IMG/VR virus record: IMGVR_UViG_2802429223_000002
Source of the DNA: a virus
Lineage: Duplodnaviria > Heunggongvirae > Uroviricota > Caudoviricetes
DNA length: 43,156 nt
Strand: one strand, 5' to 3'
Positions 2,674 to 3,447 of the stretch are shown in pieces. Numbering within the stretch: position 1 is the stretch's first letter; the number at the start of each line of letters is the position of its first letter. A program made the translations under genes and the position numbers. The notes below the pieces were generated by a model. The model ran no database searches. It was given only the letters and a program-made list of their open reading frames with translations, and was not told where the DNA came from.

Positions 2674-3447
2674 ATGGATATTACTGAGTTTCCTTCTGGA
2701 GTAATTGAACACCTTGGCTGGTATGTATACCGATTGATTGATCCGAGGGACGGAAGCACCTTCTATGTAGGGAAAGGCAAAGGTAACCGCGTATTTGCCC
2801 ATATGCGCGGTGAAGTGGCAGCGACTGATGATGACGAGTTACTGAGCAACAAGCTAAAGCAAATTAGAGAAATAAGGTTAGCAGGACTTGAGGTTATCCA
2901 TGTCATCCATCGACACGGAATGACTGATGAAAAGACGGCGTACGAAGTTGAAGCAGCACTTATTGATGCCTACCCTGGGTTAACGAATATCATGAATGGT
3001 GCTGGCAGCAATGAATTCGGCGCCGCGCATGTCAAAGAGTTGATAGCAACATATCAACCCGAAACCATAACATTTCATCATAAAGCATTAATGATTTCCG
3101 TTAACAGAAGTGCAAAGGATTCAGAGCTTTATGATGCGGTTCGATTTAGCTGGCGCATTAATGTCTCTCGCGCCAGCCAAGCAGAAGTCATTCTTGCTAC
3201 TGTAAGGGGGATCGTTCGAGGGGTTTTCATTGCTGATAAATGGCTCAAATCAACACGTGAAAATTTCCCTACGATGAAATACTGGGACGAGGATCCGGAC
3301 TTTGAGGCAACACAAAGTTCTCGCTATGGTTTTGAAGGTCGAGAAGCCCCACCTGAAATAGCAAATCTTTATCTTGGAAAAAAAATACCAGATGAATTAA
3401 GAAAAAAAGGAGCTATGTCCCCGGTCCGTTACTCACCTAATTTTTGA
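2674..3447 (+). CDS. GIY-YIG nuclease-domain protein with uncharacterised C-terminal domain
   Basis: N-terminal [28 protein letters not shown] fits GIY-(10-11 aa)-YIG-R-H spacing; ATG 2674 preferred (ORF track starts at TTG 2623); AT-rich. Confidence 0.6.

Follow-up and report, generated by a model that had tools for sequence, protein, structure and literature searches.

A predicted CMoRE (PD-T4-3) anti-phage nuclease gene on a terminator-bounded cassette in a lambdoid Escherichia coli prophage

The locus and its prophage surroundings

The window (the whole stretch of 43,156 nt that was analysed) is a lambdoid prophage with head and tail genes, J, lom, stf, tfa, a cI-like repressor gene and an integrase gene; comparison with E. 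coli NS-NP030 placed its integrase end next to tRNA-Thr and proA. An open reading frame (ORF) beginning with ATG and encoding 257 amino acids plus stop was found at positions 2674-3447 on the plus strand. In the identical DNA of E. coli C7 and NS-NP030 the same coordinates are annotated by RefSeq as WP_000355484.1, a 'LEM-3-like GIY-YIG domain-containing protein', and no differences were found between the window protein and the proteins of C7, AR_0013 and NS-NP030. A sequence-only reading of this DNA had noted an ORF with a GIY-YIG-like motif (YVYRLID...) that is convergent with tfa, and both points were confirmed: the motif comprises residues 17-43 of the protein, and tfa lies at 3517-4101 on the minus strand. 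The same reading called the gene AT-rich, which is true to a mild degree without amounting to a strong bias (GC content of 43.8% for the coding sequence and 42.0% for the surrounding cassette, compared to 50.2% for the window). The features of the locus are as follows.

1096-1446, plus strand: HTH gene (RefSeq start at 1096).
1450-1983, plus strand: ImmA/IrrE-type M78 metallopeptidase gene, ending 690 nt upstream of the CMoRE gene.
2449-2488, plus strand: upstream terminator-like hairpin at the left cassette boundary (from the direct repeat, blastn and the empty-site alignment).
2489-2673, plus strand: cassette-borne 5' region (leader), presumed to contain the promoter, which travels with the gene in every context examined.
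2674-3447, plus strand: predicted CMoRE/PD-T4-3 coding sequence (from PADLOC PD-T4-3, phrog_5356, PDB 9U75 and RefSeq WP_000355484.1).
2674-3018, plus strand: N-terminal GIY-YIG ('GIYxY-YIG') nuclease domain, approximately residues 1-115, its end being approximate (PF22945 matches residues 28-110).
2827-2838, plus strand: acidic run D52-D53-D54-E55 of the autoinhibitory loop (from the sequence; DDDD in the O157:H7 protein).
3046-3444, plus strand: C-terminal modification-sensing domain, approximately residues 125-257 and including Y127, its start being approximate (PDB match).
3469-3507, both strands: hairpin terminator separating the convergently oriented CMoRE gene and tfa, with the right cassette boundary at 3505 (from the fold and the end of homology).

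The M78 gene is followed on the plus strand by two small ORFs (1970-2119 and 2109-2252), and a BRO-N/antirepressor-like gene (1-762, minus strand) is divergent to the HTH/M78 block; a retron Ec48 is found immediately past the BRO-N gene in NS-NP030. On the minus strand, within 2082-1975, a sigma-70 promoter close to the consensus (TTGACA-16-TATACT, 11/12 matches; 2082 to 2055) is followed by a terminator with a 14-bp stem and a T-run (2019 to 1985, minus strand). An antisense RNA of approximately 70 nt, overlapping the ORF at 1970-2119 and the M78 gene at its 3' end, could arise from these elements; no Rfam match was obtained for this putative RNA at 2082-1975 (minus strand).

Further observations were made elsewhere in the prophage. 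A search of positions 1-4200 against Rfam gave no match in the cassette and a single match wholly inside the tfa coding sequence, to IS009 (RF02111), a candidate E. coli small RNA family (225.9 bits, 3560-3758, minus strand). A gene for a DUF2441 protein (28676-29224) and one for a 294-amino-acid protein with an ion-channel-like C-terminus (29568-30452), both on the plus strand, are oriented opposite to the surrounding late and lysis-region genes; neither protein had a PADLOC match, and the two genes resemble a further cargo insertion. The cI-like repressor gene (36131-36817), encoding an HTH plus an S24 peptidase, is convergent with, and overlapped at its end by, a gene for a BRCT-domain protein of 306 amino acids (36800-37720, minus strand), which had a weak match to the PADLOC candidate PDC-S48 (E 2.5e-7).

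Identity and domain structure of the encoded protein

The window protein matched the PADLOC profile PD-T4-3 (PDLC04031) with an E value of 2.4e-140, residues 1-256 aligning to profile positions 1-255 of 256, and matched phrog_5356 end to end (E 2e-143). All 257 residues were aligned in the matches to PDB entries 9U75/9U8D (E 3.7e-172) and 9U7U/9U7Z (E 1.1e-150), while NCBIfam contained no model for the protein. The ORF has the single-protein architecture of around 255 amino acids expected for PD-T4-3. PD-T4-3 was first found by Vassallo et al. (2022; PMC9519451), in E. coli ECOR68 according to a later paper (PMC12923530), and CMoRE is the name given to it by Liu et al. (Nat Commun 2026; PMC12923530), where 9U75 and 9U8D are structures of the O157:H7 protein and 9U7U and 9U7Z of the APEC O1 protein.

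Compared to the crystallised O157:H7 CMoRE (WP_000355475.1), 253 of 257 residues are identical (98.4%), and the two proteins share the same length, two domains, GIYxY-YIG motif, acidic loop, interface residues and Y127. The four substitutions are T51A, E55D, Q169K and N197H, none of which is at a residue mutated in the published study (PMC12923530); T51A and E55D, the only differences in the N-terminal domain, are within the autoinhibitory loop and are each conservative or outside the acidic run.

The N-terminal domain scored 54.2 bits against the Pfam family PF22945 (LEM-3_GIY-YIG; cut-off 27), thereby supporting the GIY-YIG fold that had been proposed from the motif, and 13.9 bits against the generic family PF01541, below its cut-off of 22.6. 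Y17, Y19, Y31, R39, H43, E91/E93 and N105 were identified in this domain, so that the GIYxY-YIG motif (Y17, Y19, Y31) and the catalytic Arg and Glu residues are all present, with E91 and E93 as in the crystallised proteins. R80, Y127 and the tetramer residues V92 and L96 are present also. The remainder of the protein, about 170 residues which the sequence-only reading could not assign, is in fact a short linker and a C-terminal domain of approximately 130 amino acids that matches CMoRE. Residues 125-257 alone matched 9U75 with an E value of 5.7e-86; no Pfam family was found for this domain, and a search against PDB sequences (E up to 10) returned nothing besides the CMoRE chains (9U75, 9U7U).

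The window protein was aligned with 80 homologues of 54-86% identity from Enterobacterales, Planctomycetota, Acidobacteriota, Actinomycetota, Chloroflexota and other taxa. Y17, Y19, Y31, R39, H43, R80, V92, L96, E93, N105 and Y127 were invariant in all 81 aligned sequences, E91 was conserved in 80 of the 81, and loop residues 46-60 contained between 3 and 7 acidic residues in every one of them. Homologues from Planctomycetota, Acidobacteriota, Actinomycetota, Chloroflexota, Nitrospira and cyanobacteria (loci L015-L086) were 54-60% identical over their full length, and some genomes carry two copies, as in one Phycisphaeraceae chromosome (L028 and L030). Judged from these alignments, an identity of 54-60% across distant phyla appears unusually high conservation for a defence gene.

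Since the published key residues are present in the window protein and conserved among homologues, the gene is almost certainly an intact copy of CMoRE (PD-T4-3), a single-gene bacterial defence nuclease. The suggestion, made from the sequence alone, that it might encode the nuclease effector of an anti-phage system is borne out by the PADLOC and PDB matches, with the protein constituting the whole system. The system has already been described and crystallised, and the gene is therefore not new.

The properties of the protein are known in detail from the work on CMoRE. E. coli was protected against T2, T4 and T6 by approximately five orders of magnitude, and CMoRE cultures infected at high MOI survived; early destruction of T-even genomes together with cell survival led to the conclusion that this is direct defence and not abortive infection (PMC12923530). 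Purified CMoRE degraded DNA containing 5-hydroxymethylcytosine (5hmC) or glucosyl-5hmC but not DNA containing C or 5mC, with Mg2+ or Mn2+ as cofactor; cleavage required two modified cytosines and occurred at CN11/N9G, leaving 2-nt 3' overhangs, and T4 with unmodified cytosine escaped (PMC12923530). The GIY-YIG domain was described as having an extra tyrosine (Y17, Y19, Y31) and a 15-residue acidic loop over the active site; in the O157:H7 protein active-site mutations, including those of Y17, Y19 or Y31, abolished activity, and a 4A mutant of the acidic loop attacked unmodified DNA and was toxic (PMC12923530). CMoRE is a tetramer, with both assembly and defence needing V92/L96; in crystals 5hm-dCTP was bound by the C-terminal domain, with a hydrogen bond to the main chain of Y127, and no sequence or structural homologue of this domain was found by the authors (PMC12923530). 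In addition, a Capnocytophaga homologue (48% identical) cut T4 DNA but not T4-GT7 DNA, and cut Mu DNA at high concentration (PMC12366544).

Cassette boundaries, distribution and neighbours

The gene lies on a cassette of approximately 1.03 kb (2464/2477-3505) bounded by a duplicated terminator of about 40 nt. In blastn comparisons with other contexts the shared sequence extends from 2464 or 2477 to 3505, and 3505 is also where it stops in pinE-linked contexts. Both boundaries coincide with copies of a direct repeat of about 40 nt (2449-2488 and 3469-3507), each containing a hairpin and then a T-run; the cores of the two copies (2460-2487 versus 3480-3507) are 86% identical and spaced 1020 nt apart. 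The fold of the left hairpin is weak (-14.6 kcal/mol, z -1.05). The right hairpin was predicted to fold with -20.3 kcal/mol on the plus strand (z -3.6) and -20.8 kcal/mol on the minus strand (z -4.0); as it folds on both strands with U-rich tails, it is probably bidirectional and probably terminates both the CMoRE gene and tfa.

An empty site was identified in strain A20, where a dinI-like gene is followed by a single copy of the hairpin (L002, 2605-2644) and then by tfa. A dinI-like remnant is located at 2297-2377 in the window (69% identical over 32 amino acids, with an internal stop and a deletion). This remnant marks the ancestral order of dinI, terminator and tfa, which is intact in A20.

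The leader (2489-2673) is likely to hold the CMoRE promoter, given that it accompanies the gene. The best candidates in a relaxed hexamer scan were weak, with 8/12 matches each (TTGTGA-17-TAATAT at 2613-2641 and TGTTCA-17-AATAAT at 2629-2657); a stricter consensus scan of the leader gave nothing at 9/12 or above, and no clear Shine-Dalgarno sequence was seen before the ATG.

The cassette was detected by megablast, at 90-100% identity, in prophage regions of 852 of 5426 complete E. coli genomes (approximately 16%); in O157:H7 the cassette DNA is 95% identical from 2477 to 3505. Only 8 plasmid records contained it, these being non-mobilizable and most of them with the cassette adjoining pinE, and no match to the cassette (2464-3507) was found at megablast sensitivity in 50,697 sequenced phage records. 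In the window it is located between the dinI remnant and tfa of the lambdoid prophage, whereas in EDL933 it is flanked by an AraC-family gene and the invertase gene pinE. In general the right neighbour is tfa or pinE, and the left neighbours vary between type II restriction-modification genes, an AraC-family regulator gene and the HTH/M78 block. In AR_0013 and EC01440 genes for a type II restriction endonuclease and a DNA cytosine methyltransferase take the place of the HTH/M78 block to the left of the cassette; in one case the prophage end concerned is the ssrA-adjacent one, as it is in strain C7. The region to the left of the cassette acts as a hotspot for defence genes. No conserved partner gene was found, as no Pfam family occurred in more than 4 of the 149 upstream ORFs across 78 diverse loci; together with the variable neighbours in E. 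coli this agrees with PD-T4-3 being a single-gene system.

Control and predicted action of the window copy

The sequence-only reading had placed an HTH-metallopeptidase pair about 0.7 kb upstream of the gene, which is correct, and had proposed it as a possible regulator. The order of an HTH gene followed by an M78 gene in the accessory region of the prophage resembles that of CapH/CapP (in CBASS and other defence systems) and of ImmR/ImmA (ICEBs1), and the proposal was a reasonable one because the pair gives modest PADLOC matches to capH (6e-11) and capP (5e-15). It would have CMoRE controlled in this lineage by the pair and induced by DNA damage or infection. The two genes are on the same strand as CMoRE, the pair is followed by CMoRE in 31 of the 34 E. 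coli genomes in which it occurs, and a 10-mer, ACATAAAATT, is common to the promoter region of the pair (931, with an inverse copy at 988) and the CMoRE leader (2513).

Nevertheless, the pair is present in only 31 of the 852 CMoRE-bearing E. coli genomes. Its 34 copies (among 5426 E. coli genomes) are all at least 99% identical, so that the 31 occurrences next to CMoRE count as one arrangement and, in effect, a single evolutionary event, and not as a regulatory unit that is recurrently adjacent across independent lineages, as would be expected of a CapH/CapP unit. Between the pair and CMoRE lie a strong terminator (2267-2290, z -4.2), the dinI pseudogene remnant and the second hairpin. When the HTH, M78 and BRO proteins of the window were compared by phmmer with 6172 ORFs from the loci of distant homologues, the M78 protein gave no match at distances up to 4 kb from the 80 homologues of other taxa, and the HTH protein gave one weak match. 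The shared 10-mer is rich in A and T, and sharing to this degree is expected by chance (8 common 8-mers compared to 4.2 +/- 2.8 in shuffles); moreover, the 10-mer is located in leader sequence that accompanies the cassette into contexts which lack the pair. Furthermore, CMoRE works alone in BL21 and K-12, neither of which is among the 34 genomes with the pair. Because two terminators intervene, the pair accompanies so few of the cassettes and none was seen around the 80 distant homologues, control of CMoRE by the pair is unsupported and must be considered very unlikely; the pair differs from CapH/CapP in not being consistently linked to the gene and in being separated from it by terminators. 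The divergent BRO-N gene or the small ORFs that follow the pair would be more plausible targets. Two wider proposals are unlikely as well: one is that a CapH/CapP-like pair recruited next to CMoRE adds damage- or infection-responsive control to a normally constitutive CMoRE in the 34-genome lineage, and the other, a separate one, is that the 40-nt terminator duplication reflects a general terminator-to-terminator route by which single-gene defence cassettes move between prophage tail-fibre ends.

Another alternative is that the gene looks intact yet is silent or inactive and does nothing in this prophage. In favour of this are the weakness of the promoter candidates, the lack of an evident Shine-Dalgarno sequence and the weak protection that the APEC O1 allele gave when expressed from its native promoter (PMC12923530); the last point makes the level of protection by the window copy uncertain. 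However, the protein is identical in several unrelated strains with all functional residues intact, conservation of the cassette across 852 E. coli genomes is 95-100%, and the copy in IAI46 is transcribed and pH-responsive. Deletion of PD-T4-3 at its native locus in the clinical isolate NILS69 sensitised the strain to Tevenvirinae phages, and PD-T4-3 with its own regulatory region functions in K-12 (10.1101/2024.12.20.629700). A silent or inactive window copy is thus highly improbable.

The sequence-only reading had also suggested a free-standing homing endonuclease of the Seg or I-TevI type, spreading by cutting empty sites; the GIY-YIG domain, a weak match to phrog_314 ('homing endonuclease', E 0.002) and the presence/absence polymorphism with a clean empty site are compatible with this, but it was rejected as having practically no probability, since no NUMOD, IENR1 or HTH DNA-binding module was found in the Pfam search (E up to 1), the C-terminal domain matches CMoRE only, the cassette occurs in several unrelated flanks and not at one cognate site, no match was found in the phage records searched, and cleavage by the 98%-identical protein is confined to hmC or ghmC DNA, depending on base modification without strict sequence specificity and leaving E. 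coli DNA intact (PMC12923530).

The reading of the gene as CMoRE leads to the following mechanism for the window copy, by analogy with the crystallised O157:H7 protein, for which the published work shows this mechanism (PMC12923530). The window copy would cleave DNA with 5hmC or glucosyl-hydroxymethylcytosine (ghmC), leave DNA with C or 5mC uncut, and thereby protect against T-even phages. The protein is expected to form a tetramer, arranged as a dimer of dimers, in which the C-terminal domain would bind 5hmC or ghmC in DNA and one dimer would read two modified cytosines approximately 21 bp apart. The GIYxY-YIG nuclease would then cleave between both modified cytosines (CN11/N9G, 2-nt 3' overhangs) with Mg2+ or Mn2+. 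The acidic loop over the active site would repel unmodified DNA, so that host and prophage DNA would be spared, and incoming genomes of T-even (T2, T4, T6-like) phages would be destroyed early, with survival of the cell. Expression is predicted to start from a promoter within the 185-nt leader of the gene and not to depend on the HTH/ImmA-like pair upstream. Judging from five contexts, the cassette may have spread among prophages by recombination at or within the flanking terminator hairpins.

Several known systems resemble CMoRE in part. Members of the PvuRts1I/AbaSI family and GmrSD also restrict T-even phages through recognition of 5hmC or ghmC DNA, and the PvuRts1I family cuts between two modified cytosines approximately 20-22 bp apart, leaving short 3' overhangs. 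Their nuclease folds are unrelated to that of CMoRE, being PD-(D/E)XK in PvuRts1I/AbaSI and DUF262/HNH in GmrSD, and the sensor of PvuRts1I is SRA-like. CMoRE differs from the PvuRts1I family, GmrSD and McrBC in both nuclease fold and sensor domain (PMC12923530). Its nuclease type is shared with the N-terminal domain of UvrC, LEM-3/ANKLE1, the type II enzymes Eco29kI and Hpy188I, I-TevI and Seg; unlike these other GIY-YIG nucleases, CMoRE has the extra tyrosine (GIYxY) and the 15-residue acidic lid, and it is fused to a modification sensor where they have a sequence-reading or repair module. I-TevI and Seg combine a sequence-tolerant DNA-binding module with a cognate homing site, neither of which was found here.

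Mechanism, structure and phage range have been published for a protein with four differences in 257 residues, and this copy therefore does not move any open question forward. The small additions to the literature are the exact limits of a mobile cassette bounded by terminators, together with its empty site, and its occurrence in approximately 16% of complete E. coli genomes. For annotation, the gene should be labelled CMoRE/PD-T4-3 and not 'LEM-3-like GIY-YIG domain protein'. By analogy with the characterised protein, the prophage would give its host restriction of T-even phages with hydroxymethylated or glucosylated cytosine.
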